Shown one piece after another: positions 2,707 through 21,629 of a stretch of DNA of 62,289 nt. Source of the DNA: an uncultured Syntrophomonadaceae bacterium (lineage in GTDB: Bacteria > Bacillota > Dethiobacteria > DTU022); contig CAYXBB010000001.1 of the NCBI GenBank assembly GCA_964463285.1, positions 1-62,289 of the forward strand, in the 5' to 3' direction. The position numbers and the translations under genes were made by a program. How positions within the stretch are numbered: the first letter of the stretch is position 1; the number at the start of each line of letters is the position of its first letter. The notes under the pieces are model-generated. The model saw only the letters and a program-made list of their open reading frames with translations, did no database searches and was not told the DNA's origin.

Positions 2707-2732
2707 GATCATCTCCTTCCCCCCCACCTAAT

Positions 2733-2868
2733 GGAGGTAACGGAGGGACGGTTCCTTTGTACATTTTCTCAAAAGGTTTTTTGTTCTGGTAATGTAAGCA
2801 TTATAATGTAAATGTAAGGGAATCTTTCCTGAGCTACCGCACAAAAGAACCGTCCCTCCGTTACCTCC
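2733..2868. repeat. 136-bp element bounded by 28-bp inverted repeats (27/28 match); REP/MITE-like
   Basis: GGAGGTAACGGAGGGACGGTTCCTTTGT (2733-2760) and ACAAAAGAACCGTCCCTCCGTTACCTCC (2841-2868). Confidence 0.85.
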
Positions 2869-2872
2869 TGTT

Positions 2873-3661: not shown

Positions 3662-3676
3662 ACTAAACCTCCTGCT

Positions 3677-4984: not shown

Positions 4985-5001
4985 TAAAAGGCCTCCTTCA
5001 T

Positions 5002-6054
5002 CTATGTTTGGTTAAACAAGGAGTTGATTTTATCTTTATCAGGTTGTCGGATTACCCCTTTTTCGGTAATCAGAGCGTCAATCAGGTTTGAAGGGGTAAC
5101 ATCAAATGCCGGATTGTAGGCTTTTACACCCCCAGGGGCGACCGCCTTCCCTGAAAATATGGTTATTTCCTTAGAATCCCGTTCTTCAATTATAATGTTT
5201 TCGCCTGCAGGCAGGGAGCGATCGATGGTCGAGAGTGGTGCGGCTACATACAGCGGAATACGGTGGTAGCTAGCCAGTACCGCCAGAGAGTAGGTGCCGA
5301 TCTTGTTGGCGGTATCCCCGTTGGCAGCGATACGATCCGCCCCGACGATAACCAGGTCGATTTTCCGATTGGCCATCAGGTGGCCGGCACAGCTATCAGT
5401 AATCAAGGTAACCGGTATCCCCTCCTGCAAAAGCTCGAAGGAGGTTAAGCGAGCTCCCTGAAGGACCGGCCTGGTTTCTCCGGCAAAAACCCGGGGCCGT
5501 TTTCCTTGGTTAAAGGCCGATCTGATTATTCCCAGCGCTGTTCCATAACCTGCGGTGGCCAGCGCACCGGCATTACAGTGAGTGAGTATAGAGGATTCCG
5601 GTGGAACCAACTCCGCTCCCAAATCCCCCAGTCGGCGGTTTGCAGCTAGATCTTCTCGAAAAATGGACAGCGCTTCTTTTTCCAGCCCGGCAGCCAGTTT
5701 TGGCAAGTCCGGGGAGGTGTTTTCCTCCAGGCAGTTCATAATTCGTTGCACGCTCCAGCTTAGATTTACCGCAGTTGGCCGGGAACGGCATAGTTTAGCC
5801 GCCACGGCAGACAAATTTGAATCAAATTCCCGGCGGGTGAGCGCCTGTTTCCGTTCCGCCGCCTGGTAGGCAGCCAAGACCAGCCCAAAAGCGGCGCTGA
5901 CACCTATCGCCGGAGCGCCCCGGACCACCATGGTTTTTATAGCCTCCGCCACCTGTTCTGCTGAATAACAGGTATAGTAAACCACCTCTCCGGGAAGCAG
6001 GCGTTGGTCCAACAGCTTCAAACAACGTCCCTCCCAGCAGAGAGTATCCGGCAT
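5002..6054 (-). CDS. mtnA: S-methyl-5-thioribose-1-phosphate isomerase
   Basis: LDQRLLP, VRGAPAIG, RPTAVNL, THCNAGALAT, ETRP, GDTANKIGTY. Confidence 0.95.
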   Translation of the reverse strand: MPDTLCWEGRCLKLLDQRLLPGEVVYYTCYSAEQVAEAIKTMVVRGAPAIGVSAAFGLVLAAYQAAERKQALTRREFDSNLSAVAAKLCRSRPTAVNLSWSVQRIMNCLEENTSPDLPKLAAGLEKEALSIFREDLAANRRLGDLGAELVPPESSILTHCNAGALATAGYGTALGIIRSAFNQGKRPRVFAGETRPVLQGARLTSFELLQEGIPVTLITDSCAGHLMANRKIDLVIVGADRIAANGDTANKIGTYSLAVLASYHRIPLYVAAPLSTIDRSLPAGENIIIEERDSKEITIFSGKAVAPGGVKAYNPAFDVTPSNLIDALITEKGVIRQPDKDKINSLFNQT

Positions 6055-6873
6055 TTATATCCCTTCTTCCTGATCTTCGGGATCCGCCGGCCAATGGCTG
6101 CCTGCCTGCCGGCAGCCACAGGATCTCAATAACGGGATTTCAGCCAAACAGCCCATCAGCAATAGATCTAGATCTGCTTTCCCTTGAGCCATAACTTCCA
6201 ACACTTCTTCGTGAGTTAAAGGATAGGAAGAGATGCCGGCGGCATAATTTGTTACCAGAGCTATGGCCGCATAACATAAACCGGCCTCCCGGGCCAGGAT
6301 AACCTCTGGAACGTTGGTCATCCCCACCACCTCCGCACCCAGGTAGGTAAATGCTTTTATTTCGGCAGGAGTTTCAAAACGCGGCCCCTGCGTACAGATA
6401 TAGCAGCCCCCGTCTATTACCGGCTGGTTCAAATAGCGGCCTGCCCTGATTATGGCAGCTCGCAACTCCGGGCAGTAGGGTTCAGTAAAATCAGTATGCA
6501 CCACCTGACCGTCCTGGCCATCATAAAAGGTGGAAGGGCGCCCCCTGGTAAAATCGATAAACTGATCTATAACTATCTTGCTTCCCGGGGGCATGTTTTC
6601 GTTCATGCTTCCTACCGCGGCAGTGGCTATTACTACTTCGATCCCCAACTTCTTTAAGGCGGCGATATTGGCGCGGTAGTTAACCAGGTGGGGAGGCGCC
6701 GAGTGCCGGTAACCGTGCCGGGCCAAAAAATAAATTTCTTGTTGCCGGTACTGTCCCGAATGTAACAGCACCTCACCGTACCTGGTAGAAATCGTCAACT
6801 CCCGGCGTTCTGTCAGTATGGATTGCTCGTAGACTCCAGTTCCGCCGATAAATGCTATTTTTTGCCGGTCCAT
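6055..6873 (-). CDS. mtnP: MTAP-family nucleoside phosphorylase, probably 6-oxopurine/methylthioinosine-specific
   Basis: IGGTG, LARHG, VNYRANI, GPRFETPAE, VGMT; substrate motif TNYA instead of TDYD. Confidence 0.85.
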   Translation of the reverse strand: MDRQKIAFIGGTGVYEQSILTERRELTISTRYGEVLLHSGQYRQQEIYFLARHGYRHSAPPHLVNYRANIAALKKLGIEVVIATAAVGSMNENMPPGSKIVIDQFIDFTRGRPSTFYDGQDGQVVHTDFTEPYCPELRAAIIRAGRYLNQPVIDGGCYICTQGPRFETPAEIKAFTYLGAEVVGMTNVPEVILAREAGLCYAAIALVTNYAAGISSYPLTHEEVLEVMAQGKADLDLLLMGCLAEIPLLRSCGCRQAGSHWPADPEDQEEGI

Positions 6874-8186: not shown

Positions 8187-8262
8187 GCCGACGTAGCTCA
8201 ATTGGCAGAGCAGCTGATTTGTAATCAGCAGGTTACCAGTTCAAGTCTGGTCGTCGGCTCCA
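8187..8262 (+). tRNA. tRNA-Thr (TGT)
   Basis: 76-nt cloverleaf, anticodon arm GCTGA-TTTGTAA-TCAGC, T-loop GTTCAAG, encoded CCA. Confidence 0.97.
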
Positions 8263-8327
8263 GTAACCTAAGGGTTTTCGGGCAGGGTGACGATATCACT
8301 GTCCGGTAACACACCCTGAAATAGGCT

Positions 8328-8356
8328 TTGACAACCCCCGCAAACTTTGCTAAAAT
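8328..8356 (+). promoter_or_regulatory. Sigma-A promoter of tRNA-Tyr/tRNA-Lys
   Basis: TTGACA-N17-TAAAAT. Confidence 0.85.
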
Positions 8357-8363
8357 ACGCGTG

Positions 8364-8390
8364 AGCTGATTTGTAGTTAGTAATTTACCA
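8364..8390 (+). repeat. Degenerate 27-nt copy of the tRNA-Thr anticodon arm (8212-8238) forming the tRNA-Tyr leader
   Basis: AGCTGATTTGTAGTTAGTAATTTACCA vs AGCTGATTTGTAATCAGCAGGTTACCA, 22/27 identical. Confidence 0.7.
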
Positions 8391-8391
8391 T

Positions 8392-8477
8392 GGAGAGGTA
8401 CCCAAGCTGGCCAAAGGGGGCAGACTGTAAATCTGCTGGCATCGCCTTCACTGGTTCGAATCCAGTCCTCTCCACCA
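8392..8477 (+). tRNA. tRNA-Tyr (GTA)
   Basis: 86 nt with long variable arm, anticodon arm GCAGA-CTGTAAA-TCTGC, encoded CCA. Confidence 0.97.
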
Positions 8478-8513
8478 ACGAACGTATGGCTGAAAAGCCA
8501 GCATATATTTAGT

Positions 8514-8589
8514 GGGCCATTAGCTCAGGTGGTAGAGCACCTGACTTTTAATCAGGGTGTCGAAGGTTCGAGTCCTTCATGGCTCACCA
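8514..8589 (+). tRNA. tRNA-Lys (TTT)
   Basis: 76 nt, anticodon arm CCTGA-CTTTTAA-TCAGG, encoded CCA. Confidence 0.97.
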
Positions 8590-8723: not shown

Positions 8724-9254
8724 TCAGGAGGTTGTGTTTCCACGGATATATCGCTTTTCCTCATCACTTAGGAACCGTTCCGTAATATAGGCTATCAAAG
8801 CAATTCCCGGCAGATTAACCAGAAACCTGGTAATGGTAAATTGCCAGCCCATGGAAGAGGCTTCGAAGAGAAGCTGGGGTATTTTTGTGGTTGACCAGGC
8901 ACCGATCATGATCAGCACATTAGAAAATTTGCTCCCCTTATCTAAAAGAACTCCGGCGATGGGAAAGGCGGCGTAAAGCGGTCCCGCCGCTGCTGAGCCT
9001 AAAAAGAAAGCGATTGCTACCCCAAGAAGTCCCGATTTTTCCCCCATTAACTTGATCATGGTCCCCCGTTCTATCCAAACGTCCAACAAGCCCAGGAGTA
9101 CAAATATAGGAGGTAGAATGGCAATCATTTCCAGGGCATTTTTTCCGGTTATGCTGATCGATTTTTGCCCGATTGAAGGATAAATAATTAACAAAGCAAT
9201 ATTGAGCGCAGCCAGTATCAGAAAGAACCTGTACCTATTTATAATTCTCATCAT
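8724..9254 (-). CDS. Predicted permease (DUF318-like, half-size), subunit 2
   Basis: Multi-TM; GSAAAGPLYAAFP and GAWSTTKIPQLLFE motifs. Confidence 0.75.
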   Translation of the reverse strand: MMRIINRYRFFLILAALNIALLIIYPSIGQKSISITGKNALEMIAILPPIFVLLGLLDVWIERGTMIKLMGEKSGLLGVAIAFFLGSAAAGPLYAAFPIAGVLLDKGSKFSNVLIMIGAWSTTKIPQLLFEASSMGWQFTITRFLVNLPGIALIAYITERFLSDEEKRYIRGNTTS

Positions 9255-9733
9255 CCCAGCACCACCCCTATCACTAGGGCTACTAGATATGAAAAGATAA
9301 ACGCCATTCCATTCCTTAAAATTGTAGCCTTTTTTCCGAAATATTTTATCTCAACCGGTGCTGTAACAATACCCACCATCATCAGGGTGGATATGAATAC
9401 GGCTATTTGCATAAATCCGGCCCCGCTTTTAAGCAGAGCCGAAGCCAAGGGGAAGGCTACAAATCCGGGAATCAACGTAATTGATCCAATTAAAGAGGCG
9501 ATAGTCATGCCGAACCATCCCGATTGTCGGCCGATAAGCTGAGATATAGTTTGAGGGCTTAATAATGCCAGCAGAACACCAATTAGGATAAATATTGAAA
9601 GCAACTGGGGAAGTATGCTTTCAAAGGATTTCCAGGCTTTTTTTAAAGCCATTTTCGTCTTTATCCTGTCTTTTAGAAAGGAAAGCGCCAGCAAGCCGGT
9701 GGCCAATAGATATAAAATGAGTGTAAATTTCAT
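9251..9733 (-). CDS. Predicted permease (DUF318-like, half-size), subunit 1
   Basis: Multi-TM; GSITLIPGFVAFPLA and STLMMVGIVTAPVE; 4-bp overlap with its partner. Confidence 0.75.
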   Translation of the reverse strand: MKFTLILYLLATGLLALSFLKDRIKTKMALKKAWKSFESILPQLLSIFILIGVLLALLSPQTISQLIGRQSGWFGMTIASLIGSITLIPGFVAFPLASALLKSGAGFMQIAVFISTLMMVGIVTAPVEIKYFGKKATILRNGMAFIFSYLVALVIGVVLG

Positions 9734-10808: not shown

Positions 10809-11184
10809 CGGCTGCACTCCTCGTGGGTTTAATTTATGAAAAAAGTTGGGATTGGGTAGATACCCTTTTTGCAGTAATTATTCATATAATATGTTATGCC
10901 GGTTGACGGCACGATGACAATAGGTATACTCACGCGGGTAGATCTTTAAATCTCCTTTATCCTTTCTTTTGCAAGGATAGCTCCAAAACTATTCTACCGG
11001 CAAGTGTTGTAAAAACAGTTCTGTGGGAAATAATCGAGGTAGGGGCCGCTTCCGCCCTGAAGGATCCGACAACTTAGTAGCACACCCTGAAAAGTGGGCG
11101 GCCTGTTTGGAAATAGTATGGTCCAGCCTGGCACCCCCCTGCCCGGAAAATCCGTCAGGTGCGCTACCCTGGGGATAGCCCCGG

Positions 11185-11937
11185 TTAAGGTTTTCCATAA
11201 AAACATAAACGCCGGTATCCCAACAGGGCTACAATTCCGGCAGCGGTGGTACCGTAGAAATAAACCGGTTTGCCGTCAACTTTATCGAGCAGATCGCAGG
11301 CGGTACCGTTAACAAAGGTAGTCCCGGTAATCAATAGCAGTTCGCTTTTCTCGATCAGTTCATCTGTCCTGGTAATCCCATCCCAGATTTCTATTCCAAA
11401 ACGGCTCATTCCCAGGTTGCTCGTGTCCATATCGGTTACCCGGATCAGGTTTTTCCCCATCTCTTGAACACAGCCGGAGATAATACTTGGCTGGTAACCT
11501 ATAATGCCCACCGGCAGAAGGCCGTGTTTTCGCTTGATCTCCCGGGCCATTTCCGCTCCGCACCGATCCGGCTCACTATCCCGGCAATGAATGGTGGCAT
11601 TGGTAATTCCTAAATGATTTAGCACTGCATTCAAGGTAGCTACAAAAATGGCGCGCCGGCTATTGCTGTTTAAATCAAAATTTATAACTTCCTGCAAGAC
11701 CCCTTCATAGGTAACCGGAGAATTGGTGAAAGCCTGCCCCCTTCCGCTGAACACGCTGGCTTCCAAAAGCACTTCTTTGCCCCGCAAAAGCGGGTAATCG
11801 GTGCTTTCCGGCTGGCCGATAGCCTGGACGGGGGTGAGAGGTTTCGCTGAGACCGGAAATCCCTCCCACCCTTCTGCCGACACCAGAAGGTTTTTAAGTC
11901 GGTCCCTTATAGCATCATAGCCGAGGCCACTATCCAT
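11185..11937 (-). CDS. DUF364-family Rossmann-like protein (putative heavy-metal chelation)
   Basis: PQAIGQP...GKEVLLEA...GQAFT, RAIFVATLNAVL, LITGTTFVNGT, YFYGTTAAG. Confidence 0.7.
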   Translation of the reverse strand: MDSGLGYDAIRDRLKNLLVSAEGWEGFPVSAKPLTPVQAIGQPESTDYPLLRGKEVLLEASVFSGRGQAFTNSPVTYEGVLQEVINFDLNSNSRRAIFVATLNAVLNHLGITNATIHCRDSEPDRCGAEMAREIKRKHGLLPVGIIGYQPSIISGCVQEMGKNLIRVTDMDTSNLGMSRFGIEIWDGITRTDELIEKSELLLITGTTFVNGTACDLLDKVDGKPVYFYGTTAAGIVALLGYRRLCFYGKP

Positions 11938-11973
11938 TTATTTTTCCTCCTCGTAAGGCTTTCATATTTCATA

Positions 11974-12414
11974 TTATTTTTTTACTATTTCAACCGGATC
12001 ACCAGTTTTTACCTGCCCGCTTTTAATTACCCGCCCAAATCTTCCTTGTTCTGCAAGCAGACTGAATCCCCGATAAGAAAAGGTGTGCTTTGCGGGATCC
12101 TCCTTGCCGATGGCTGTAACCTCTATCAGGGCTTCTCCTATCTTTAAAAAGGTACCCCTGGTTACCTCCTCTCCCGAAAGGCCGCTTACCAGAAGATTTT
12201 CAGCAAAACTTCCCGGGTCCGGTTTTTCCCCCAGGGCCTTTATTACCGGTTCCATGAGTGGTTCCAGTAAAATGCTAATCTGCCAGCCCGAAGAGCCGGC
12301 ATGAGCGTCTCCCAGCAGCCCGTAGCCTTTTTTCAAATATCCGCTGCCCATATTATGCTTGGATTTACCGCATTCGTCAGAAACGCAAACTGCTCGGAGG
12401 ATCTCCTTGCCCAC
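11974..12414 (-). CDS. Small MOSC-domain protein lacking the conserved catalytic Cys
   Basis: AVCVS, GLLGDAHAG, PGSFAENL, LKIGEALIEVTAIGKE(D), GQVKTGD. Confidence 0.8.
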   Translation of the reverse strand: MGKEILRAVCVSDECGKSKHNMGSGYLKKGYGLLGDAHAGSSGWQISILLEPLMEPVIKALGEKPDPGSFAENLLVSGLSGEEVTRGTFLKIGEALIEVTAIGKEDPAKHTFSYRGFSLLAEQGRFGRVIKSGQVKTGDPVEIVKK

Positions 12415-12483
12415 GGTGCATTACCTCTTTTCGAAAGTATTCGCTTAAATAATTCTATCATCATTAGCCCGATTTACCACCGT

Positions 12484-12540
12484 TTACCACCCCCGGCGAC
12501 GGTTTCTTGTTCTCGTCCCCGTTCCATCAAAACCAGGCAT
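12484..12540 (-). pseudogene. 18-aa mini-ORF MPGFDGTGTRTRNRRRGW; DUF5320-like N-terminus, probably a remnant
   Basis: Strong RBS GGAGG 9 nt before the ATG; MPGFDGTG resembles the DUF5320 start MPxxDGTGP; below the ORF-track cutoff. Confidence 0.55.
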
Positions 12541-12582
12541 AGCATACCCCCTCCAGAGGGTTTTGGTTAAAGCAAACCGGGT

Positions 12583-12978
12583 TCATTCCTTAGTTGTAGA
12601 TTGGCCTCCAGAACGATTGCGTGAGCGATAATCCATTATCGCATAGAAAAGTGCTTCCGCTCCCAAATTGGAACAGTGCATTTTCGGGTCCGGCAGGCCC
12701 CCCAGTGCTTCAGCAATATCCAGGTCGGTAATCCGGAGTGCCTCATCCAGTGTTTTCCCCATCGCAATTTCGGTTAAAATACTGGTGGTAGCGATGGCGG
12801 CAGGGCAGCCGTAAACTTTAAATTTAATTTCACTTATCCGCCCCTCCGATACCCGAATAAATACCCGGAGATAGTCACCGCAGGCCGGATCTCCAATAGC
12901 TCCCACGCCGTCCGCATTGGGAATCAATCCTACATTTCGGGGGTGCTGGAAATGATCGATCAATTTTTCGGTGTACAT
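12583..12978 (-). CDS. iscU: IscU/NifU-type Fe-S cluster scaffold
   Basis: DHFQHPRNVG, PACGD, FKVYGCPAAIA, KMHCSNL. Confidence 0.9.
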   Translation of the reverse strand: MYTEKLIDHFQHPRNVGLIPNADGVGAIGDPACGDYLRVFIRVSEGRISEIKFKVYGCPAAIATTSILTEIAMGKTLDEALRITDLDIAEALGGLPDPKMHCSNLGAEALFYAIMDYRSRNRSGGQSTTKE

Positions 12979-12999
12979 CTCAGTTCACCTCGAAAAAGT

Positions 13000-13863
13000 T
13001 TAATTAAGCAGTTCCGCAGTCTTTATCCATAGCTTTTCTATATCCTTAGAAACCGGACCATCAGTATATTCCACCACCGGTATTCCCCGGGCGGTTGCTT
13101 CTACAAAGGCCCGATCGAAGGGTATTTTTGCCGCCGGCTCAAGAGATTCTCGTTGACAGTAATTTTCAATGGCCCGGGTGTTTTCTTCAGAAAGATCAAA
13201 ACGATTTATACATACCGCGGCTGGGATCTTGAAATGCCGGCATACGGATATAACCCGTTCCAGATCGTGAATCCCCGACAAGGTGGGCTCAGTAACCACC
13301 AGGGCCGCATCCACCCCGCCCAGAGAGGCAATCACCGGGCAGCCGATGCCGGGAGGCCCATCAATAATCAGATAGCGCTTTTTTTCTTCCGCGGCAATTT
13401 TTTTGGCCTTCTCCCGGATTGCCGTAACCAGCCTTCCGGAATTCTCTTCGGCCACCCCCAGGCGGGCGTGAACCAGTTTCCCGTATGCAGTTTGCGAGAT
13501 AAACCAGTGCCCGGAAACAACTTCGAGCATCTCGATGGCATTTTCCGGGCAGGCGCGGCTGCAGACTCCGCAGCCTTCACAGCTAACCGGATCAACACGG
13601 TAGCGGCTTGAAATGGCCTCGAAACGGCAAAGTTCACGGCATAGTCCGCAGGCATTGCAAATTTCAAGATCAATTCCAGCTTTTTTAGAAGCACGGAACT
13701 CCTGTTTTTCCAGCTGCCGGGGCCTGGTAATCAGGCTTAAGTTGGGAGCATCCACATCAGCATCCACCAACACCGCATCTCCTCCAGCCAGAGCGGCAAA
13801 GCAGGCGGTGAGTGTTGTTTTCCCGGTTCCTCCCTTACCACTGATCACTACCAGTTCATTCAT
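13000..13863 (-). CDS. MinD-superfamily P-loop ATPase with an inserted 2x[4Fe-4S] ferredoxin domain
   Basis: SGKGGTGKTT, DADVDAPNL, CNACGLCRELC, CEGCGVCSRAC, DGPPGIGCP. Confidence 0.9.
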   Translation of the reverse strand: MNELVVISGKGGTGKTTLTACFAALAGGDAVLVDADVDAPNLSLITRPRQLEKQEFRASKKAGIDLEICNACGLCRELCRFEAISSRYRVDPVSCEGCGVCSRACPENAIEMLEVVSGHWFISQTAYGKLVHARLGVAEENSGRLVTAIREKAKKIAAEEKKRYLIIDGPPGIGCPVIASLGGVDAALVVTEPTLSGIHDLERVISVCRHFKIPAAVCINRFDLSEENTRAIENYCQRESLEPAAKIPFDRAFVEATARGIPVVEYTDGPVSKDIEKLWIKTAELLN

Positions 13864-14767
13864 GATGCATCAACCTTCCCGTCCCCATAACTTGCTTCCC
13901 CAGATCGGTAAACACCTGTTTCCAGGAGTCAAAATGTTTGGCTGCCAGTTCGCCGCGAGCATAACAGGAAGCCAGTTCCCTATCAAATGGTATCTTTAGC
14001 AGAACCGGCACCCCTTCCTGGCGGCAGTACTGTTCAATGGAATTATTGTCACTGTTTTCCAGGTAGCGGTTGATCACCACTCCGGCAGGGATGCCCATTA
14101 CTCCTACCAGCTCCACCGCTAATTTTAAATCATGCAACCCAAAAGGGGTTGGCTCGGTTACCAAAAGGCAATAATCGCTGCCTTTAACAGTCTCCACCGC
14201 TGAACAGGAATTGCCCGGCGGAGCATCGATAATGGTCAGGCAAGCGGGATCCGTCATATCTTTGACTGCTTTTATCAAGGGTGGAGAAAGTGCCTCTCCC
14301 GGCTCAAGGCGCCCGTGTACAAATTGAACATCTCCATCTGCCCCCTGCCTCCCATTTCCTGTTCCCGTTTCCTGCCTCAGGTTTGTATAACCGGTTTCCA
14401 GTAGTCCGATAGATCTATCAATTTCAGTAATGGCTTTCTCCGGGCAGAAATAAGCACAGCCTCCGCAGCCGTGGCAGAGCTGTTCGAAAACCAACACGTT
14501 GCCCTTGGTCACCATTAACGCATTAAAGGCACATACCTCGGCGCACAGGCCGCAATATGTGCATTTTCCCATGTCTATTTCCGGCACAGGTATGGTTACC
14601 GGTCGACTGGTGTTGATCTCAGGTTTTAAAAACAGGTGGGCATTGGGTTCTTCCACATCGCAGTCTAAAAACTGCAACTTTGATTCGCTCTCTATCGTCT
14701 GCAATAAGTTGGTAGCCACAAAGGTTTTACCTGTTCCGCCTTTGCCACTAATTATACTAATAATCAC
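13856..14767 (-). CDS. Second MinD-superfamily P-loop ATPase with a 2x[4Fe-4S] ferredoxin insert
   Basis: SGKGGTGKT, DCDVEEPN, CTYCGLCAEVC, CHGCGGCAYFC, DAPPGNSC. Confidence 0.9.
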   Translation of the reverse strand: MIISIISGKGGTGKTFVATNLLQTIESESKLQFLDCDVEEPNAHLFLKPEINTSRPVTIPVPEIDMGKCTYCGLCAEVCAFNALMVTKGNVLVFEQLCHGCGGCAYFCPEKAITEIDRSIGLLETGYTNLRQETGTGNGRQGADGDVQFVHGRLEPGEALSPPLIKAVKDMTDPACLTIIDAPPGNSCSAVETVKGSDYCLLVTEPTPFGLHDLKLAVELVGVMGIPAGVVINRYLENSDNNSIEQYCRQEGVPVLLKIPFDRELASCYARGELAAKHFDSWKQVFTDLGKQVMGTGRLMHHE

Positions 14768-14814
14768 GGATATCTCTTCTTTCCAGGTTTGATAACCTGC
14801 CGGTTCCCATATTC

Positions 14815-14856
14815 TGTCTTTTTGAACTGAGGATCCTTTGCTCGCTCAGAATGACA
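14815..14856. repeat. Degenerate palindrome of the TGTCATTCTGAGCG REP type
   Basis: Minus strand TGTCATTCTGAGCGAGCAAAGGATCCTC; the opposite arm is decayed (10/13 match). Confidence 0.4.
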
Positions 14857-14959
14857 AGATTAGTTAACCGACCCCCGGCCTTATTTTTCCGACCGGGGCC
14901 GGATCTTAAATCTTCATCCATATCTTTAAGCGTTACATTTCCTTATTAATTATTAAAAA

Positions 14960-15340
14960 TTAGTTGCAATCGCAGCCTCCGGAGCCGTGTTCCCCGCTGC
15001 CGCGACCCTGGCCATGCTCACAAAGACTTTCCAGTGGTATAAGTTCCCCGGTTAAAAATGCCTCAACAGTTTGTTCCACCGGACCGGTAATGCCTATAAT
15101 TACCTCGATATTCTTTTGGTTAAACAGGTCAATAGCCCTTCGGCCCATCCCTCCGGCAATAATGCAGGATACCCCCCGCTCAGACAGGTACGCAGGCAGA
15201 AAACCGGGTTGGTGGCCCGGATTGGAGATAACCTCTTTAGAGATAATTTTATCTCCCTCCACCTCCACCAGCGTGTATTCAGGGCAACGCCCAAAATGCT
15301 GGGCCACATGTCCCTGTTCGGTACTGATAGCAATTTTCAT
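14960..15340 (-). CDS. NifB/NifX-family (MTH1175/Orange-protein-like) metal-cofactor-binding protein with a His/Cys tail
   Basis: HFGRCPEY, GHQPGFLP, IAGGMGRRA; C-terminal CEHGQGRGSGEHGSGGCDCN. Confidence 0.88.
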   Translation of the reverse strand: MKIAISTEQGHVAQHFGRCPEYTLVEVEGDKIISKEVISNPGHQPGFLPAYLSERGVSCIIAGGMGRRAIDLFNQKNIEVIIGITGPVEQTVEAFLTGELIPLESLCEHGQGRGSGEHGSGGCDCN

Positions 15341-15354
15341 TACAATTCCTCCTT

Positions 15355-15726
15355 CTACTGATTGGAACCAAAATGAGAATCGACTGTAGCGTCGGAAACC
15401 AGGGTAAGTTTGCCCTGGGAGAGCCGGTTGAAAGTTTCTTCTACCGTTCCGGCTATTCCGCTATAAATCTTGATTCCGGCCGCTTTGAGCGCGGTGACCG
15501 CGTTGGGACCCACATTACCCACCAACACCGCCTCCACCTTCTCTGAAAATAGCAGGCGGGCGGTTTGAGTTCCGGCTCCGCCGGAGGCAAGGGCACCGCT
15601 GTTGGGGATGGACTTGATTATCTCCCCGCTGTCCGAGTCCAGTATTACAAAGTAAGGGCAACGCCCAAAACGTTGATCTACCGGCGAGGTTAAATCCTCG
15701 CCCTGTGCACAGATGGCTAATTTCAA
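15355..15726 (-). CDS. NifB/NifX-family protein (Orange-protein-like)
   Basis: VDQRFGRCPYF, GGAGTQTA, GNVGPNA, C-terminal VDSHFG; TTG start after GGAGG. Confidence 0.88.
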   Translation of the reverse strand: MKLAICAQGEDLTSPVDQRFGRCPYFVILDSDSGEIIKSIPNSGALASGGAGTQTARLLFSEKVEAVLVGNVGPNAVTALKAAGIKIYSGIAGTVEETFNRLSQGKLTLVSDATVDSHFGSNQ

Positions 15727-15762
15727 TTTAAATTCCTCCCAAGTCAAATGTTAAAATTCGAA

Positions 15763-16584
15763 TTAATGGTGACTTCCATCCTTTTTTTCCAGAAGAGCAG
15801 GAATCCGGTGTAAAAAATCAACCCGGTAATCCTCGATCTCGCCTCGATCTCCCAGTTTGGAGATTTCAGGATCCAGCGGGATTTCCCCCAATCGCCGGAT
15901 TCCGGTGGCTGCCGATACCTTTTCAGACTGGCTTGGACCAAATAGTTCCAGTTTCTCTCCACAATGAGGGCAATGCAGGCCGCTCATGTTTTCGATCAGG
16001 CCCAGTATGGGAACCTCCAGCATTCGGGCCATGTTGATCGCTTTCTTTACTACCATTACTGCCAGGTCCTGGGGGGAGGTAACGATAATCAGCCCGTCCA
16101 AAGGGAGCGATTGCAGCACGGTTAATGGAGCATCCCCGGTGCCGGGAGGCAGATCCACTATCAGGTAATCCAGATTGCCCCAGAGCACATCGGTCCAAAA
16201 TTGTTTTACCGCTCCGCCGATTAACGGCCCTCTCCAGATTACCGGATCTTCTTCCCGCGGCAGCAGCAGGTTAAGCGACATTATTTTTATCCCCAGCCTG
16301 CTGGATAGAGGCACAATTTTTCCTTCCTTTATCAATGGTTGCTGGCGAAGCCCAAATAAGGTTGGAATACTGGGGCCGGTAATATCTGCATCCATCAGGC
16401 CCACCTGGAATCCGTCTCGGGCCAGGCTCACCGCCAGCAAAGCGGATACCGATGACTTCCCCACCCCTCCTTTACCGCTCATCACCGCAATGGTATGACG
16501 GATCTGGCTGTGTTCAGGCTGAGCCAGTTTTTCCAGCAAAGCTTTGCTGCAATCAGCGTTCATACAGGTTTCAGTTTCTTCCAT
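15763..16584 (-). CDS. Mrp/NBP35 (ApbC) Fe-S cluster carrier ATPase
   Basis: MSGKGGVGKS, DADITGPSIP, VIWRGP, DLPPGTGD, ENMSGLHCPHC. Confidence 0.93.
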   Translation of the reverse strand: MEETETCMNADCSKALLEKLAQPEHSQIRHTIAVMSGKGGVGKSSVSALLAVSLARDGFQVGLMDADITGPSIPTLFGLRQQPLIKEGKIVPLSSRLGIKIMSLNLLLPREEDPVIWRGPLIGGAVKQFWTDVLWGNLDYLIVDLPPGTGDAPLTVLQSLPLDGLIIVTSPQDLAVMVVKKAINMARMLEVPILGLIENMSGLHCPHCGEKLELFGPSQSEKVSAATGIRRLGEIPLDPEISKLGDRGEIEDYRVDFLHRIPALLEKKDGSHH

Positions 16585-18459
16585 TTAGATCCCCCTTTTC
16601 CAGGTAGAAATGCTTGATTTTGATATGGCCAGATCTTCCCGACGGTCAGAAGTGCCGCCAAAAAGCACTAGTATCATTATACCCAATCCGACAAGCAACA
16701 AAGCCAGTAAGGTCGGTGGCAGCACGGTGTCCAGCAATAAGTTTGTCATACTTCCCACTGCCAATGAGGTACAAAACATCAAGAGCATCGCCGCTCCCAG
16801 GTCCCTGATTCCCAGTTCCTTGTAAAGAACAATAAAGGTGGCCGCACAGGGAAAATAGGTAACCAGCACGATGGCTCCGGTAACAAACTGGCTGGCGTTC
16901 AAGCCCAATGGAACCAGCAGGGCCACCGCCACGTCTTTCCGCAGCAGGCCAATTATCAAGGTGGAGACCGCCTCCCCGGGAAGTCCCAGCATTCCCTGAA
17001 CCAAGGGTGATAAAACCGCCGCCAGGAAATCAATAGCCCCGGAGATATACAGGAGATTGACTAAAAGAATACCTGCGAATATAAAAGGCAGGGCCTCTCC
17101 CAAAAAATGATTTAGGCGCATCTGAAGCTTCTGAAGCTGGCTTTTAAGATGAGGCCACCGGTAAGGCGGTATTTCCATTATCATGGAGGGGGTATATCCC
17201 GGTAAAACCTGATCCAGGAACAAGCCCAGGGTAACCCAGATAAAAAACAGGGTAGCAAATATCACGCTTAAATATGCACCGCCGTAACGGCCCACCAGTC
17301 CGATTACCATGGACATCTGGGCTGCGCAAGGAATGGTTATGGAGATCAAGGTGCAGGCCAGGAATCTCTCCCGCCGGCTTTCCAGGCTGCGGGCGGATAT
17401 TATGGCCGGGACATTGCAGCCCAATCCCAGGATCATGGGAATGATTGCAAACCCGTGCAGTCCCAGACGGTGCATTATCCGATCAGCCATCACCGACAAC
17501 CGGGGGAGGTACCCGCAGTCCTCCAGGAATCCCAGGGCCAGGTAGAACATGATCAAAAACGGCAACACCACCCCGAATACGATAAATACCCCGGTAGTAA
17601 GCAGTCCCATGGATTCTTCCAATAAGATCCGGCCCTGGCGGAGATTGCCAATTAGCAGGTTGTGCAAAAAACTATGTTCACCCAGTCGCCGGCCCAGGGA
17701 ACTAATTGCCGGCAAATAGATCGGGTTAAAGAAGATGCGCAGCAGCAGTTCTTGAAGCCATTCACCCAGGCCGATAATAAGTTTAAACGATAGAAAAAGG
17801 ATAATAGCAGCCAGAGGAACCCCGGTAGACGGTTTTATACTGGCCAACTCCAGCTTTTCCAGCCAGGTGGGGTGGCGATGAGTAATCCTTTGGATCTTTC
17901 CTATTGCATAACCAATCCAGGCCCAACGTTCATCCGAAGACAAGGGATCAACCTTTCCGGCTACAGCCCGGTCCAGAGTAGCCACCAGTTGCGATAGCCC
18001 CTCCCCGCTTATGGCTACCGTGGGTATTACCGGCACCCCCAGCAGTTGCCGCAAGGCAGGGATATCGATACGCACTCCCTTGTAAGCTGCCTCATCAACC
18101 ATGTTTAACACTATTATCAAAGGAACCTTTTTCTCCAGCAGCTGGCGAGTCAGATAGAGATTTCGTTCCAAGTTGGTAGCATCTACAACATTTATCACTG
18201 TATCGGCTGATTCAACCAGGTTGGCCGTAACCTGCTCCGCCCGGTTGGAGGGATCCAGGCTGTACGTTCCCGGGGAATCCAGCAGCTCATATTCCCGGTT
18301 CTTAACGGTCATTTGCCCGCGGGTAAATTCCACCGTAGTTCCCGGGTAATTGGAGATCACCACCCGGGCTCCGGTAAGCTGAGAAAAGATCACGCTTTTC
18401 CCTACATTAGGGTTTCCAACCAGCACAATTTTTTTGTTTCTTACACTTACAGCGCTCAT
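16585..18459 (-). CDS. feoB: Ferrous iron transporter B (short 624-aa form)
   Basis: GNPNVGKS, NYPGTTVE, DSPG, NMVD, LEDCGYLPR, GLGCNVPA, IPCAAQ, YFPCAAT. Confidence 0.92.
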   Translation of the reverse strand: MSAVSVRNKKIVLVGNPNVGKSVIFSQLTGARVVISNYPGTTVEFTRGQMTVKNREYELLDSPGTYSLDPSNRAEQVTANLVESADTVINVVDATNLERNLYLTRQLLEKKVPLIIVLNMVDEAAYKGVRIDIPALRQLLGVPVIPTVAISGEGLSQLVATLDRAVAGKVDPLSSDERWAWIGYAIGKIQRITHRHPTWLEKLELASIKPSTGVPLAAIILFLSFKLIIGLGEWLQELLLRIFFNPIYLPAISSLGRRLGEHSFLHNLLIGNLRQGRILLEESMGLLTTGVFIVFGVVLPFLIMFYLALGFLEDCGYLPRLSVMADRIMHRLGLHGFAIIPMILGLGCNVPAIISARSLESRRERFLACTLISITIPCAAQMSMVIGLVGRYGGAYLSVIFATLFFIWVTLGLFLDQVLPGYTPSMIMEIPPYRWPHLKSQLQKLQMRLNHFLGEALPFIFAGILLVNLLYISGAIDFLAAVLSPLVQGMLGLPGEAVSTLIIGLLRKDVAVALLVPLGLNASQFVTGAIVLVTYFPCAATFIVLYKELGIRDLGAAMLLMFCTSLAVGSMTNLLLDTVLPPTLLALLLVGLGIMILVLFGGTSDRREDLAISKSSISTWKRGI

Positions 18460-18472
18460 AGTAGTTTTCTTT

Positions 18473-18718
18473 TTACCTGTTCCCGGTTTCCGGCTCTATA
18501 TAAATCCGGCAGGCCCGTCCATAACCCAGCGCTACCTGAGATCGATTGATCTCTATCACCACCGGCCCTTTTTGGAATACTGAACTTAATTTAGTCACCT
18601 TTTGTCCCGGATAGAGACCCAGAGTCTGCAATCTGGCCGCCATCCCGCATCCGCCGCCTATAGTCCTAACCGTGCCTGTTTGTCCGGGTTCCATTTTTGC
18701 CAGAGATACTAGTTTCAA
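18473..18718 (-). CDS. feoA: Ferrous iron transport protein A
   Basis: RLQTLGLYPGQKV...GPVVIEINRSQVALG; TTG start after GAGG. Confidence 0.88.
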   Translation of the reverse strand: MKLVSLAKMEPGQTGTVRTIGGGCGMAARLQTLGLYPGQKVTKLSSVFQKGPVVIEINRSQVALGYGRACRIYIEPETGNR

Positions 18719-18757
18719 TGTAAGCACCTCGTTCCGTAGCACCATCACAAAAAAATG

Positions 18758-18791
18758 TTAAGTTCAACTAACAGCCATGTTAATTATATCA
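18758..18791 (-). promoter_or_regulatory. Internal extended -10 promoter with a weak DtxR-like site upstream of feoA
   Basis: TGA-TATAAT on the minus strand (18783-18791); TTAAGTTCAACTAAC (18758-18772) shares both inner arms with the DtxR box. Confidence 0.45.
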
Positions 18792-19220
18792 CCTGCTATC
18801 AGGCTTTTCTCCCTCCGAAAAATTAAAGTTATTTGTGCAATATTCACCTTCCAACAAAAATTTAATCAGCCGTTCAATGGTCTCACTGCTTACCGCATGT
18901 TCCATCAGGCAGGCATCTCTTTCCGCAACCTGGTTATCAAGGCCCAGCACCTCCACCAAAAAACTTCTCAACACCCGGTGACGTCTTCTTACTATTAATG
19001 CGCACCTTTGACCTTCATCAGTTAGTTCTACCGGCCCATAGTAATTTTGTTTTATCAGCCCTTGTTTCCGCAGCAGTTTTAAAGCCTGGGCCACACTGGG
19101 CTTGGTCAATTTTAGACGCTCAGCAATATCGGTTACCCTCACCGTGTCCTGCTGAAGCGATAGATTCAAAATCTCCTCTAAATAATCTTGCAAGGAAGCG
19201 CTGATCGGCAACGGGGTCAC
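18789..19220 (-). CDS. DtxR/MntR-family metal-dependent repressor (short form, no SH3 domain)
   Basis: SLQDYLEEI, VRVTDIAERLKLTKPSV, RRHRVLRSFL, ACLMEHAVS; GTG start after AGGAG. Confidence 0.92.
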   Translation of the reverse strand: MTPLPISASLQDYLEEILNLSLQQDTVRVTDIAERLKLTKPSVAQALKLLRKQGLIKQNYYGPVELTDEGQRCALIVRRRHRVLRSFLVEVLGLDNQVAERDACLMEHAVSSETIERLIKFLLEGEYCTNNFNFSEGEKPDSR

Positions 19221-19282
19221 TGTACACACTCCTATTTGTCCGATTTCCCCGCAATTCGCAAGCATCGGTAGTGCAAGACGAC

Positions 19283-19334
19283 TTAAGTTAGTCTTACCTA
19301 ACTTTTTTATATCTCATATACCCTTACCTGTCAA
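19283..19334 (-). promoter_or_regulatory. Sigma-A promoter with a DtxR-type operator at the transcription start
   Basis: TTGACA-N17-TATAAA (19334-19306); TTAAGTTAGTCTTACCTAA (19283-19301) matches 16/19 of the DtxR consensus TTAGGTTAGCCTAACCTAA. Confidence 0.85.
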
Positions 19335-19378: not shown

Positions 19379-20395
19379 CTACAACTCCCTTTTGAAATGC
19401 TCCGCCACCTCCTGTAGAAGGGTAAACGAATTTTCTACAGTTTTCTCCCCGTCCAGGTTGACCAGGCAACAGCGCGCCGGTGCCAGCCAGGCCTGGGAAA
19501 GGATCTGGCGCCGCGGTATTCCGGAACGCTCCAGGCTTTCCCAAAGGTCGTTTAACAAATCAATCATGGTGTGGGCGCTTTCTTCCCGGAACTCCTCAGT
19601 AAGGGTAGGGGTTATTCCCCATGAAATAATTCCTCCACGATTTAAAAACTGTTTGATCTGATCTTTATAATGACTGAAAATATGTCCCCGGGCCAGTACA
19701 TCCAGGGAAAGAATGTTAAGCGGCAATTCCAACAGGAATGACCAGTCAGGATTGCCGCAGAGGTGTACACCCTTGGGGCCCGGAAAGCTGTCAAGGAAAA
19801 GCCGGTAATCCTCCCTGGCTTTTTTATCAGTGTAACCGGTAAAGGCCATAAAGATCATCTCCAGTCCCGGCTCATCCACCCACACAAACGCTTCCGGATG
19901 TTTGCACTGCAGCTGGTTAAACTGGGCCTGTAATTTTTTGGCCACAAACTCAAATATTATCTGCCGGACTTCTTCATGATAGATCATGGGTCGCCTGTGC
20001 TCATCGGTAATTTTCAGACCATAACTTACCGGACCGATGCTCTGTCCGCGAATGTAACGGTATTCGCGGAGATCCTTTTCCAGGAAACGATGAAATACTG
20101 CAGAATACCGGGGCGAGAGGCAAAAATATTCTTCATTATCCCACTGCAAAAACAGCTCTTCCAGTTCCCCATAGAATTTCTCCAAAGAAAACCAGACCAC
20201 CCTTTTATCCGGATCCAGGGAAACTCCCGGAAAATGTTCGGATATTTGGGCATACATATCTTCAAAAAAATTTAATCGAGGCAGCTGAGGCCAGAAAGGT
20301 ATGTCCAAGGATAGGGCCAACTGTAAAGCCTTTTCCACATCGGTGTGGGGCAAAATTCCCATAGCGGTAGTCTGACAATTTCCTTCCAGTTTCAT
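19379..20395 (-). CDS. Core (single-barrel) MetE-like, folate-independent methionine synthase homolog
   Basis: TTAMGILPH, FWPQLP, VDEPGL, Zn-ligand-like VHLCGN and PARCCL; start reset to 20395, just after the stop of the HD gene. Confidence 0.65.
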   Translation of the reverse strand: MKLEGNCQTTAMGILPHTDVEKALQLALSLDIPFWPQLPRLNFFEDMYAQISEHFPGVSLDPDKRVVWFSLEKFYGELEELFLQWDNEEYFCLSPRYSAVFHRFLEKDLREYRYIRGQSIGPVSYGLKITDEHRRPMIYHEEVRQIIFEFVAKKLQAQFNQLQCKHPEAFVWVDEPGLEMIFMAFTGYTDKKAREDYRLFLDSFPGPKGVHLCGNPDWSFLLELPLNILSLDVLARGHIFSHYKDQIKQFLNRGGIISWGITPTLTEEFREESAHTMIDLLNDLWESLERSGIPRRQILSQAWLAPARCCLVNLDGEKTVENSFTLLQEVAEHFKREL

Positions 20396-20399
20396 GCCT

Positions 20400-21629
20400 T
20401 TAACCATCCTCCCTAATTTCGCCGGCGCGTCCCCCCATGATTTTAAAATCTTGAAACATCCTCCCAAAGTTGATTCCGGCGATCTTTTTATCCTGGTAAA
20501 GGTTATAAAGCTCACGGTTGGCCTCATCGAGATGGGGCGATTTAATGCCGTGAGTGATCGAAAGGTAAGTTTCCATGTAGGCGGCCAGCTGATCACAGGC
20601 CCTGATGATCTCTCCGTCCAACGGGAAATAACGATCCTGGTTGTAGCGCTCGTTTATCTCAGTGGAAGTTCTAAAACGGATTTCTCCTCCTTCAATTATT
20701 TTGCTTTGAAATTCATTCTCAGTAAAATATTTGATCTCCTGATGCCAGGCAGGCGGCAATAAGGGGTAAATACGTTCCTCCATCTGCCATTGCTCAATCT
20801 CTTTGATCAGCTCGTCCAGACCAGGCACCGAGCGTTTAACCGGGGAAACAATGTCCCGGGTAATAACTTCCGGCAAATCATGAAACAGCCCGGCAAAATA
20901 ATTTTGGTAGCTCCTGACCTGGCAGGCTTCCATCTCCAGAGAGCAAAAATAGGCCAGGATAGCCACAATCAACATATGACCCATCACTGAGGTCCGCGGA
21001 ATACGAGGTGACTGTGCCCATCTCTGTTGAAATCGAAGCTGTCCGACCAGATCCAGAAAATGGCTGGTTTTTTTATTTAAGGTTATTTTTTGTACTCCCG
21101 CCAGATCGTAATGTTCTTCCAGTTGATTTTCAATGGCCTGTTTGGTTTCTTCCAATCCGTACAGATTAGCATTTAGATGGTAAATGATTTTAAATTCCCA
21201 GTTGGTGGCCAAATAATGCGCGGCCCGAAGGATTTTTCTTTCCAGGCAGTTCTGCCCCGAAAGGTTATAATATTGTTCCATTCGTTGCAAAAAGCCGCCT
21301 TTTAAGGGGGCTATATGCTCGCCTATTTTCTCCAGAACCCACCGGTTTAGCTGTTCTCCCTTCTCAATCATGAGTTTATGAAAAATGGGGGGCTTGATAT
21401 CGGTGAGCACGATCCGGTGAAGAAATTCAAACAGGCCGCCTTCAATTAAATTTCGCCAGTTAATAGTAAGGTTCCGATCGGTCTCCTCCATTTTCCCCAG
21501 AACATAGGCATAGATCATTTTATGAGCCTGCTTGTCCAGCTCCGTAAAATGCTCCGGCCTGATATGATCGTTCCAGCGCTGAATGCTGGCCGCTTCAAAC
21601 AAAAATTTAAGCAATTGTTTGCTGATCAT
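20400..21629 (-). CDS. Tandem YfbR-like HD-domain phosphohydrolase (first HD degenerate)
   Basis: IQRWND...KQAH and QQRW...SVMGH...FHDLPEVITRDI...ACDQLAA. Confidence 0.8.
   Translation of the reverse strand: MISKQLLKFLFEAASIQRWNDHIRPEHFTELDKQAHKMIYAYVLGKMEETDRNLTINWRNLIEGGLFEFLHRIVLTDIKPPIFHKLMIEKGEQLNRWVLEKIGEHIAPLKGGFLQRMEQYYNLSGQNCLERKILRAAHYLATNWEFKIIYHLNANLYGLEETKQAIENQLEEHYDLAGVQKITLNKKTSHFLDLVGQLRFQQRWAQSPRIPRTSVMGHMLIVAILAYFCSLEMEACQVRSYQNYFAGLFHDLPEVITRDIVSPVKRSVPGLDELIKEIEQWQMEERIYPLLPPAWHQEIKYFTENEFQSKIIEGGEIRFRTSTEINERYNQDRYFPLDGEIIRACDQLAAYMETYLSITHGIKSPHLDEANRELYNLYQDKKIAGINFGRMFQDFKIMGGRAGEIREDG

Follow-up and report, generated by a model that had tools for sequence, protein, structure and literature searches.

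Why would a metal-sensing repressor, a ferrous-iron transporter and genes resembling the Orange protein (Orp) complex of Desulfovibrio stand together in one string of genes, and do the two atypical genes at its end, for a MOSC-domain protein and a DUF364 protein, belong to the same system? The locus that raises this question lies on contig CAYXBB010000001.1 (GenBank assembly GCA_964463285.1) of an uncultured Syntrophomonadaceae bacterium, where the minus strand of positions 11185-19334 carries eleven co-oriented and tightly packed open reading frames (ORFs) within a stretch of 62,289 nucleotides (nt; hereafter the window). With moderate confidence, we read these genes as one metal-derepressed operon in which Fe(II) uptake would be coupled to Orp/MrpORP-type assembly and delivery of iron-sulfur (Fe-S), possibly heterometal, clusters.

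Assigning the operon proteins to families by Pfam and NCBIfam profile searches, we obtained the transcription order DtxR-FeoA-FeoB-Mrp-NifX1-NifX2-ATPase1-ATPase2-IscU-(DUF5320 relic)-MOSC-DUF364, with junctions that measure, from DtxR to DUF364, 40, 13, 0, 15, 14, 192, -8 (an overlap), 21, 168 and 36 base pairs (bp). These positions and assignments bear out the order, co-orientation and close packing described in a first-pass annotation of the letters alone, and its sigma-A promoter with a 16/19 DtxR box also holds: the promoter reads TTGACA-17-TATAAA, its -10 hexamer having gone unlisted by the promoter scan because that scan requires a T at position 6, and the promoter is overlapped by a predicted 19-bp palindromic operator, TTAGGTAAGACTAACTTAA, read from the sequence. 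This operator matches the classical DtxR consensus TTAGGTTAGCCTAACCTAA at 16 of 19 positions and is the sole site with three or fewer mismatches in the window, against a chance expectation of 0.03. The absence of the sigma-54 control known from Desulfovibrio Orp was likewise confirmed, as no gene for a sigma-54 enhancer-binding protein of the OrpR type is present and the -24/-12 pattern occurs at chance level in the window (29 matches versus 27.5 expected), with none at the operon promoter. No nif structural genes were seen among the window ORFs scanned (part of all its ORFs), in line with the same annotation. Searched with Rfam at gathering scores, the whole window gave three tRNAs and nothing else, and therefore no riboswitch or known small RNA appears to be involved.

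To assess the gene string across genomes by a route independent of its MOSC and DUF364 genes, we used ATPase 2 as an unbiased query and examined five relatives on long contigs. Two of the five (L174 and L175) possess DtxR-FeoA-FeoB-Mrp-NifX-NifX-ATPase-ATPase in the window's order, with all eight core proteins 58-77% identical to the window's (67% and 70% for ATPase 2, 68-69% for the repressor). Their promoters align with the window's such that the -35, the -10 and the operator core TTAnGnAnnnCTAACnTA keep the same place, and the feoB/mrp junction, at which the FeoB stop abuts the Mrp start in the window (0 bp), is a 1-nt overlap in L174 and 2 nt in L175. The other three relatives, which lack Feo, are arranged as (Mrp)-NifX-NifX-DUF5320-ATPase-ATPase-(IscU)-DUF134, and this looks like the commoner Bacillota layout (NifX fusions also fell under the BLAST label 'DUF134', whose counts are therefore read as 'NifX/DUF134-type'). 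Beyond this set, a noisy low-coverage contig (L087) shows FeoB-Mrp-NifX-NifX-ATPase-ATPase-IscU-MOSC-DUF364, the window's own order; five loci of the window's own clade (L081-L085) carry ATPase-ATPase-IscU-MOSC-DUF364 with proteins 73-89% identical; and two environmental contigs from other lineages (L106 and L107) hold NifX-ATPase-IscU-ATPase-...-DUF5320-...-DUF1847-MOSC-Fur-FeoA-FeoB. Because the same partners recur under another iron regulator and in another gene order, we interpret Feo and the Orp-like genes as functionally coupled, and on these comparisons the link between iron import and Orp-like genes is real and recurrent. The join that had been proposed between the two is thus borne out, by the eight-gene core with its promoter and operator in L174 and L175 and by the Fur-Feo version in L106 and L107. 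Synteny divided the original proposal, however, since DtxR-feoAB-NifX-ATPase recurs and the MOSC and DUF364 genes are not conserved with that cluster.

At the tail of the L174 and L175 operons, a metallo-beta-lactamase (MBL) fold gene, with or without IscU, takes the place of MOSC-DUF364. One MBL-fold family (Lactamase_B) recurs both at the tail of Orp-like clusters and beside MOSC and DUF364 genes, being found in L077, L079, L071, L073, L174 and L175 and in 27 of the 86 MOSC-anchored loci described below.

The proteins of the core were then compared with those of the Desulfovibrio Orp complex. Mrp matches the NCBIfam MrpORP model over positions 2-231 (336 bits) and NifX2 matches its C-terminal part, yet the two are separate genes, each below the equivalog cutoff of 450; we read them as a split MrpORP, with the NifX1 gene placed between the halves. 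NifX1 has the properties of an ORP-like single-domain NifX protein (Orp8) and matches the structures 1eo1 (1e-20), 1rdu (3e-19) and, over residues 9-116, the orange protein ORP itself (2wfb, 1.2e-12), being closer to MTH1175 and TM1290 than to ORP. NifX2, with structural matches 2yx6 and 1t3v, is 32% identical to NifX1 and ends in a His/Gly/Cys-rich tail of about 20 residues (...CEHGQGRGSGEHGSGGCDCN), whereas NifX1 is tailless. The two ATPases are 33% identical paralogues, each with a Walker A motif and a 2x[4Fe-4S] ferredoxin insert of two CxxCxxCxxxC motifs, and they represent an Orp3/Orp4-type pair by architecture as described in PMC6345978 rather than by alignment to Orp3 and Orp4; the Walker A motif of ATPase 1 reads GKGGTGKT, and ATPase 2 has at least 8000 relatives, the best ones from Bacillota. 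The IscU protein retains all three cluster-ligand cysteines (ACGD, GCPA, HCS). Because the MrpORP model matches Mrp and NifX2, NifX1 matches 2wfb and the ATPases share the Orp3/Orp4 architecture, we conclude, from sequence, that the core is a true homologue of the Desulfovibrio Orp system, a resemblance that the first-pass annotation had pointed out. Desulfovibrio MrpORP carries a [4Fe-4S] cluster, and both aconitase and Orp3-Orp4-Orp8 can receive Fe-S clusters from it in vitro (PMC6345978).

The regulator at the head of the operon combines a winged helix (PF01325, 45.8 bits) with a metal-binding dimerisation domain (PF02742, 70.8 bits) and lacks the SH3-like third domain. Its ORF is open up to an ATG at 19265, and judged by the L174 and L175 orthologues its true start is most likely the GTG at 19220 (VTPLP...). 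Among solved structures, E. coli MntR (1e-16) and IdeR (2e-14) come closest to it. Taking Met10/Cys102 as diagnostic of Fe and Asp8/Glu99 as diagnostic of Mn, we found that the N-terminal ligands Asp27 and Glu30 align with those of MntR, where IdeR has Met10, and that the C-terminal Cys-x2-Glu-His aligns with Cys102, Glu105 and His106 of IdeR, where MntR has Glu at the Cys position. We infer iron as the sensed metal from context only, that is, from the cargo genes.

Table 1. Features of the operon in transcription order, with positions in the window and the basis of each assignment.
Feature	Position	Strand	Basis or remark
-35 hexamer TTGACA	19329..19334	-	Read from sequence; invariant in the orthologous L174 and L175 promoters
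-10 hexamer TATAAA, 17-nt spacer	19306..19311	-	Read from sequence; identical hexamer in L174 and L175
Predicted DtxR/IdeR-type palindromic operator TTAGGTAAGACTAACTTAA, 19 bp	19283..19301	-	Starts 4 nt past the -10
DtxR/MntR-family repressor, 143 amino acids from GTG 19220	18789..19220	-	Pfam PF01325 and PF02742
FeoA	18473..18748	-	PF04023, 59.6 bits
FeoB ferrous-iron transporter	16585..18459	-	FeoB_N 183 bits, Gate x2, FeoB_C
Mrp/NBP35 P-loop Fe-S carrier, CPHC (CxxC) motif	15763..16584	-	PF10609 (NUBPL/Mrp, ParA), 310 bits
NifX1, Nitro_FeMo-Co domain, ORP/MTH1175 clade (Orp8-like)	15355..15747	-	PF02579, 82.7 bits
NifX2, equivalent of the MrpORP C-terminal 'Di-Nase' half	14960..15340	-	NCBIfam MrpORP positions 265-365, 111 bits
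NifX2-ATPase1 spacer, 192 bp	14768..14959	-	GC-rich hairpin at about 14902-14868, without U-tract
Ferredoxin-domain MinD ATPase 1 (Orp3/Orp4-like)	13856..14767	-	CbiA and Fer4 x2
Ferredoxin-domain MinD ATPase 2 (Orp3/Orp4-like)	13000..13863	-	CbiA and Fer4 x2; overlaps ATPase 1 by 8 nt
IscU/NifU-type scaffold	12583..12978	-	NifU_N 145 bits; NCBIfam NifU_clost 163 bits
DUF5320 relic, 18 codons, MPGFDGTGTRTRNRRRGW then stop	12484..12540	-	ATG at 12540, in the 168-bp IscU-MOSC gap
Possible extended -10 TGATAGAAT	12452..12460	-	By eye, about 40 nt upstream of MOSC; possible internal promoter
MOSC-domain protein without canonical MOSC cysteine (GKED... HTFSYRGFSLLA)	11974..12414	-	PF03473, 38 bits
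Divergent DUF364 protein (subfamily 'A1')	11185..11937	-	PF04016, 31.6 bits (cutoff 23), residues 142-233 only

Turning to the two tail genes, the MOSC protein exceeds the PF03473 cutoff of 22.7 bits, its subfamily profile matches YiiM structures at 1e-7, and the MOSC half of the NCBIfam MoaC/MOSC model scores 76 bits on it. Its subfamily, which ranges from 98% down to about 40% identity, lacks the canonical C-terminal cysteine throughout, such that the GKECH..C....G.C.MP of other short MOSC proteins is replaced in the alignment by GK[DE]....HTYSY.GFSLLA; the window protein reads GKED, with Asp at the canonical Cys position, versus GKEC or GKKC in Cys-containing short MOSC proteins and QPC in YiiM. 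An N-terminal cysteine, Cys10, is nearly invariant in the subfamily. Counting neighbours within 10 kb of 86 MOSC-anchored, mostly metagenomic loci, we found DUF1847 (28), MBL (27), DUF5320 (20), Fur (20), pyruvoyl arginine decarboxylase (20), IscU (17), ferredoxin-ATPase (16), FeoB (12) and, once, a DUF364 gene of the window's type. In many loci (L088, L095-L100) an intact DUF5320 gene lies directly 5' of the MOSC gene, and in P0137 the two are fused, which would explain the DUF5320 relic ahead of the window's MOSC gene. This relic, previously noted as a DUF5320-like remnant, is confirmed as such, its first 8 residues being identical to the N-terminus of intact DUF5320 proteins. A recurrent environmental string was also seen, (arginine decarboxylase)-DUF1847-Cys-less MOSC-Fur-(radical S-adenosylmethionine (SAM), CDF-NifX fusion)-FeoA-FeoB, which occurs in L092, L093, L106, L107, L139, L145, L148, L151, L153 and others; DUF1847 is a Cys-rich family.

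The DUF364 protein is more divergent, in that it has no NCBIfam match, its N-terminal DUF4213 goes undetected, and its subfamily profile matched no chain in the PDB. An AlphaFold2 model (predicted local distance difference test 94) finds its best folds in 3npg and 3l5o (probability 1.00, template modelling score 0.48-0.58, 12-14% identity), and by this model the window protein has the DUF364 fold. The subfamily, with 237 representatives at E<=1e-30 among 1.84 billion, is marked by invariant H117-C118, C126 and C245 (an HC...C...C motif). For the window's own DUF364 protein, the nearest genome is a Syntrophomonadaceae metagenome-assembled genome at 73% identity. Around 86 DUF364-anchored loci from many phyla, again within 10 kb, the neighbours were ModC/WtpC-like (31), TauE (26), ferredoxin-ATPases (20), ModA (20), ModB (17), IscU (16), MOSC (10) and FeoB (3); the transporter type was assigned by NCBIfam, with modA and the Mo_ABC_porter permease above cutoffs and WtpC at 343 bits. 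Natural fusions of window-type DUF364 join it to IscU (P0404 and P0428, in both of which the IscU cysteines and the HC...C...C motif are intact), to a ModC-like ATPase (P0375) and to FmdE (P0374), and from the sequences DUF364 is probably a partner of IscU that itself binds a cluster or metal. The family has been linked with metal transporters before (PMC2954201), a DUF364 gene in the modABC operon of M. maripaludis is cofit with nifH (bioRxiv 10.1101/2024.03.05.583561), and the only characterised DUF364 member is the SAM-cyclising methyl-azetidine-carboxylate synthase Orf5 (PMC12930334).

Given these neighbourhoods, MOSC and DUF364 are lineage-specific tail genes with different preferred neighbours. 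The notion of a conserved MOSC-DUF364 pair was rejected, as the two are adjacent in only 10 of the 86 DUF364-anchored loci (6 of them from the window's clade) and in 1 of the 86 MOSC-anchored loci; the idea that they form a module of 'end-users' fared no better, since they stand in the operon only within the window's own clade.

We propose the following working scheme. DtxR-family proteins repress in their metal-loaded form, and given this family knowledge and the position of the operator, a metal-loaded dimer (Fe2+ most likely, Mn2+ possible) would sit on the 19-bp palindrome and block RNA polymerase, repressing its own gene too. When metal is scarce, the entire dtxR-feoAB-mrp-nifX1-nifX2-ATPase1-ATPase2-iscU-mosc-duf364 string would be transcribed, presumably as a single unit because most junctions are short (0-40 bp) and the order is conserved. 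FeoAB would then import Fe2+, its family function, and IscU, a scaffold for Fe-S clusters, would build clusters with sulfur provided in trans. Mrp, through its CxxC motif, and the detached Di-Nase protein NifX2 would carry clusters and load the ferredoxin-domain ATPases, taken to be a heterodimer, which would act with the ORP-like NifX1 in a transfer modelled on that from Desulfovibrio MrpORP to Orp3-Orp4-Orp8 in vitro; the ATPases would then drive cluster delivery to client proteins. The Cys-less MOSC, as an accessory, and the His/Cys-rich DUF364 would be lineage add-ons. The logic would be that of the Fur-controlled suf genes of E. coli, where iron scarcity brings more uptake and a dedicated assembly route.

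Several observations weigh against this scheme and have to be set beside the other explanations of the locus. No cysteine desulfurase (IscS/NifS) is encoded in the operon or among the scanned window ORFs, so the first-pass description of a 'complete' line from uptake through scaffold and carrier to acceptor was overstated; the ligand set of the repressor is an MntR/IdeR hybrid whose nearest solved relative is E. coli MntR, and its selectivity is unreadable from sequence; the DUF364 subfamily keeps company with ModC-like, ModA and ModB or TauE genes more often than with Feo; and the physiological role of the Orp complex itself is unresolved (PMC8359166). The operon could also be uncoupled into parts, by the strong hairpin in the NifX2-ATPase gap and the possible extended -10 in the IscU-MOSC gap, and taken together with the two long gaps (192 and 168 bp) and the lack of MOSC and DUF364 from the orthologous L174 and L175 operons, this would suit the view that there is no single system, with DtxR-feoAB, the Orp-like genes and MOSC-DUF364 being separately transcribed neighbours with unrelated roles. 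We think this improbable. A scan of both gaps called neither a terminator nor a consensus promoter, and both can be read as relics of genes: the 168-bp gap, which measures only 45 bp in the closest relatives, holds the DUF5320 relic, and the 192-bp gap (fold z-score -3.55 for the whole gap) occupies the DUF5320 position of L177 and L178. Its counterpart in L175 retains a recognisable DUF5320 C-terminus, to which a 54-codon ORF of the window (14757-14921) is weakly similar, and on this sequence resemblance the spacer is possibly a decayed DUF5320 gene; the hairpin at 14868-14902 may serve in processing or stability, or may be left over from a DUF5320 gene. Separate neighbours would moreover be hard to reconcile with a feoB/mrp junction kept at 0-2 nt in three genomes, with the identical order in L087, with the independent linkage that L106 and L107 show between Fur-Feo and Orp-like, IscU and MOSC genes, and with the existence of IscU-DUF364 fusion proteins.

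The Mod-type neighbours of DUF364 suggest the main competing account, in which the Orp-like machine, DUF364 and MOSC would handle Mo/W-S (or Mo/W-Fe-S, Mo-Cu-S) species, for example to mature formate dehydrogenases or other Mo/W enzymes, with Feo giving the iron part only and the transporter being swappable (FeoAB, ModABC, TauE). L062, L071 and L073 share the arrangement ModA-ModB-ModC-DUF364-(MBL)-Orp-like cluster, the DUF364 gene standing directly 3' of the ModA-ModB-ModC/WtpC-like genes, and this agrees with the fusions of DUF364 to the ModC-like ATPase and to FmdE, with the M. maripaludis cofitness, with the best score of the window's MOSC protein being to the MOSC half of MoaC/MOSC, and with the Mo-Cu-S cluster of the D. 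gigas orange protein, as noted in PMC6345978. We nonetheless consider a heterometal route unlikely for this operon, because no Mo/W transport or molybdenum-cofactor genes were seen among the scanned window ORFs, the core conserved in L174 and L175 includes Feo and lacks both DUF364 and MOSC, and the MOSC subfamily is without its canonical cysteine and neighbours Fur, Feo and IscU rather than Mod genes. A store or detoxification system of the IssA/thioferrate type, in which NifX proteins, aided by DUF5320 peptides rich in Gly, Arg and Trp, would lay down imported iron together with sulfide, strikes us as very improbable. IssA belongs to the NifX family and has a tail that is cationic and Gly/aromatic, and MTH1175, the best solved relative of NifX1, has been termed IssA-type (PMC5524996), and the DUF5320 proteins of related clusters share the Gly/Arg/Trp-rich composition; in the window, however, DUF5320 is decayed (the 18-codon relic, with the 192-bp gap a possible second one), NifX1 has no tail, the short tail of NifX2 is His/Cys/Gly-rich and not cationic, and repression by metal-loaded DtxR runs counter to a store, which would have to be made when iron is in excess.

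A more far-reaching reading, which we offer only tentatively, is that anaerobes may use Orp-like clusters generally to assemble metal-sulfide clusters, and that the input module of this line is exchangeable, being FeoAB with DtxR or Fur, ModABC, or TauE. The HC...C...C DUF364 may then be a new cluster-binding enzyme that receives Fe-S from IscU and acts where the imported metal or oxyanion is passed on to the Orp ATPase/NifX core, and the Cys-less MOSC, DUF5320 and DUF1847 may be further parts of the same network.

Around the operon, the window is an ordinary spore-former chromosome: it holds SpoIVA, GerA, RtcB and SurE, genes that look like those of methylthioadenosine (MTA) salvage, and a trio of sigma-factor, anti-sigma (HATPase) and STAS genes similar to the sigF operon. 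Directly upstream of the operon promoter lies an ORF at 19379-20596 (minus strand, about 337-405 amino acids, start probably near 20392), which runs into the end of an HD-domain gene (20400-21629), matches nothing in Pfam or NCBIfam and has no counterpart upstream of the L174 and L175 operons. At the other end, a 367-bp G+C-rich non-coding spacer (10818-11184) with short ORFs in several frames separates DUF364 from a cell-wall amidase gene; it gave no Rfam match even at E<=1 and is not conserved in relatives, and the three long spacers likewise show no repeat elsewhere in the window and no conservation in relatives. The close relative L081 has FxsA, YolD and DinB-type polymerase genes at this site, and comparison with relatives ruled out that the spacer is a relic of such genes. 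Further along are two half-size ArsP_1-type permease ORFs of 176 and 160 amino acids that overlap by 4 nt (8724-9733, minus strand), a split pair that also occurs, at 64-76% identity, about 8 kb from the DUF364/Orp-like cluster of the complete Syntrophomonadaceae genome L062, and three tRNA genes (8187-8586, plus strand) on the strand opposite to almost all other window genes. Genes for RtcB, SurE, an amidohydrolase, an IF-2B-family (MtnA-like) protein and a purine/MTA phosphorylase-family protein stand together at 1276-6873 (minus strand); the same genes flank the DUF364 homologue of L086, and because of this shared flank the chromosomal position of the operon end is conserved.

As to what is new, Orp clusters, MrpORP, DtxR-feoAB loci and a loose link between DUF364 and metal transporters (PMC2954201; bioRxiv 10.1101/2024.03.05.583561) were known before, and the system is a variant of the known, functionally unsolved Orp type, not a categorically new one. 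In the literature searched, we found no description of DtxR-feoAB with an Orp-like core as a conserved operon, of the alternative Fur-Feo and ModABC joins to Orp-like genes, of the Cys-less MOSC subfamily with its iron context, or of the HC...C...C DUF364 subfamily with its IscU fusions. The Orp complex is anaerobe-specific according to the literature, and its relatives found here are widespread. Because Orp-like genes are joined to metal importers and metal regulators, here to Feo and a metal-sensing repressor and elsewhere to Fur-Feo or Mo/W importers, the wiring suggests that the primary Orp function is the supply of metal clusters and not cell division. It also gives first functional contexts for divergent DUF364, Cys-less MOSC, DUF5320 and DUF1847, the Rosetta-stone IscU-DUF364 fusions included, and makes the operon a means of testing a system that is widespread and specific to anaerobes.

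Several known systems share parts of this operon. With the DtxR/IdeR/MntR-feoAB loci of Gram-positives and archaea it has in common a short repressor directly 5' of feoA-feoB and a 19-bp palindrome near TTAGGTTAGCCTAACCTAA overlapping the transcription start region, whereas here eight further cluster-assembly genes follow and the repressor has hybrid MntR/IdeR ligands and no SH3-like domain. The comparison with Fur-regulated suf of E. coli is one of analogy only: a metal-loaded repressor silences Fe-S assembly until iron is scarce, yet the machinery is not homologous (no SufBCD, SufS/SufE) and here the uptake genes share the operon. P. furiosus IssA resembles the present system in its NifX/IPR003731 domain and in belonging to an anaerobe's handling of iron and sulfur, and differs in that the window has no long cationic Gly/aromatic tail, a decayed DUF5320 and the opposite regulatory logic. 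The window's DUF364 protein shares the predicted two-domain fold and the Pfam DUF364 match with the structures Dhaf4260 (3l5o) and PH1506 (3npg), and is set apart from them by its low identity, the undetected DUF4213 and the invariant HC...C...C of its subfamily. The Orp cluster of D. vulgaris Hildenborough (Orp3, Orp4, Orp5, Orp7, Orp8 and Orp9/MrpORP, with the regulator OrpR) likewise combines a paralogous pair of 2x[4Fe-4S] MinD-type ATPases, an Mrp/NBP35 CxxC carrier and NifX/Di-Nase proteins in an anaerobic host. There, however, the genes form two divergent operons under sigma-54, OrpR and IHF with a fused MrpORP, whereas here one operon runs from a sigma-A promoter with a DtxR operator, Mrp and NifX2 are split with NifX1 between them, and feoAB has been joined upstream and IscU, a Cys-less MOSC and a divergent DUF364 downstream.

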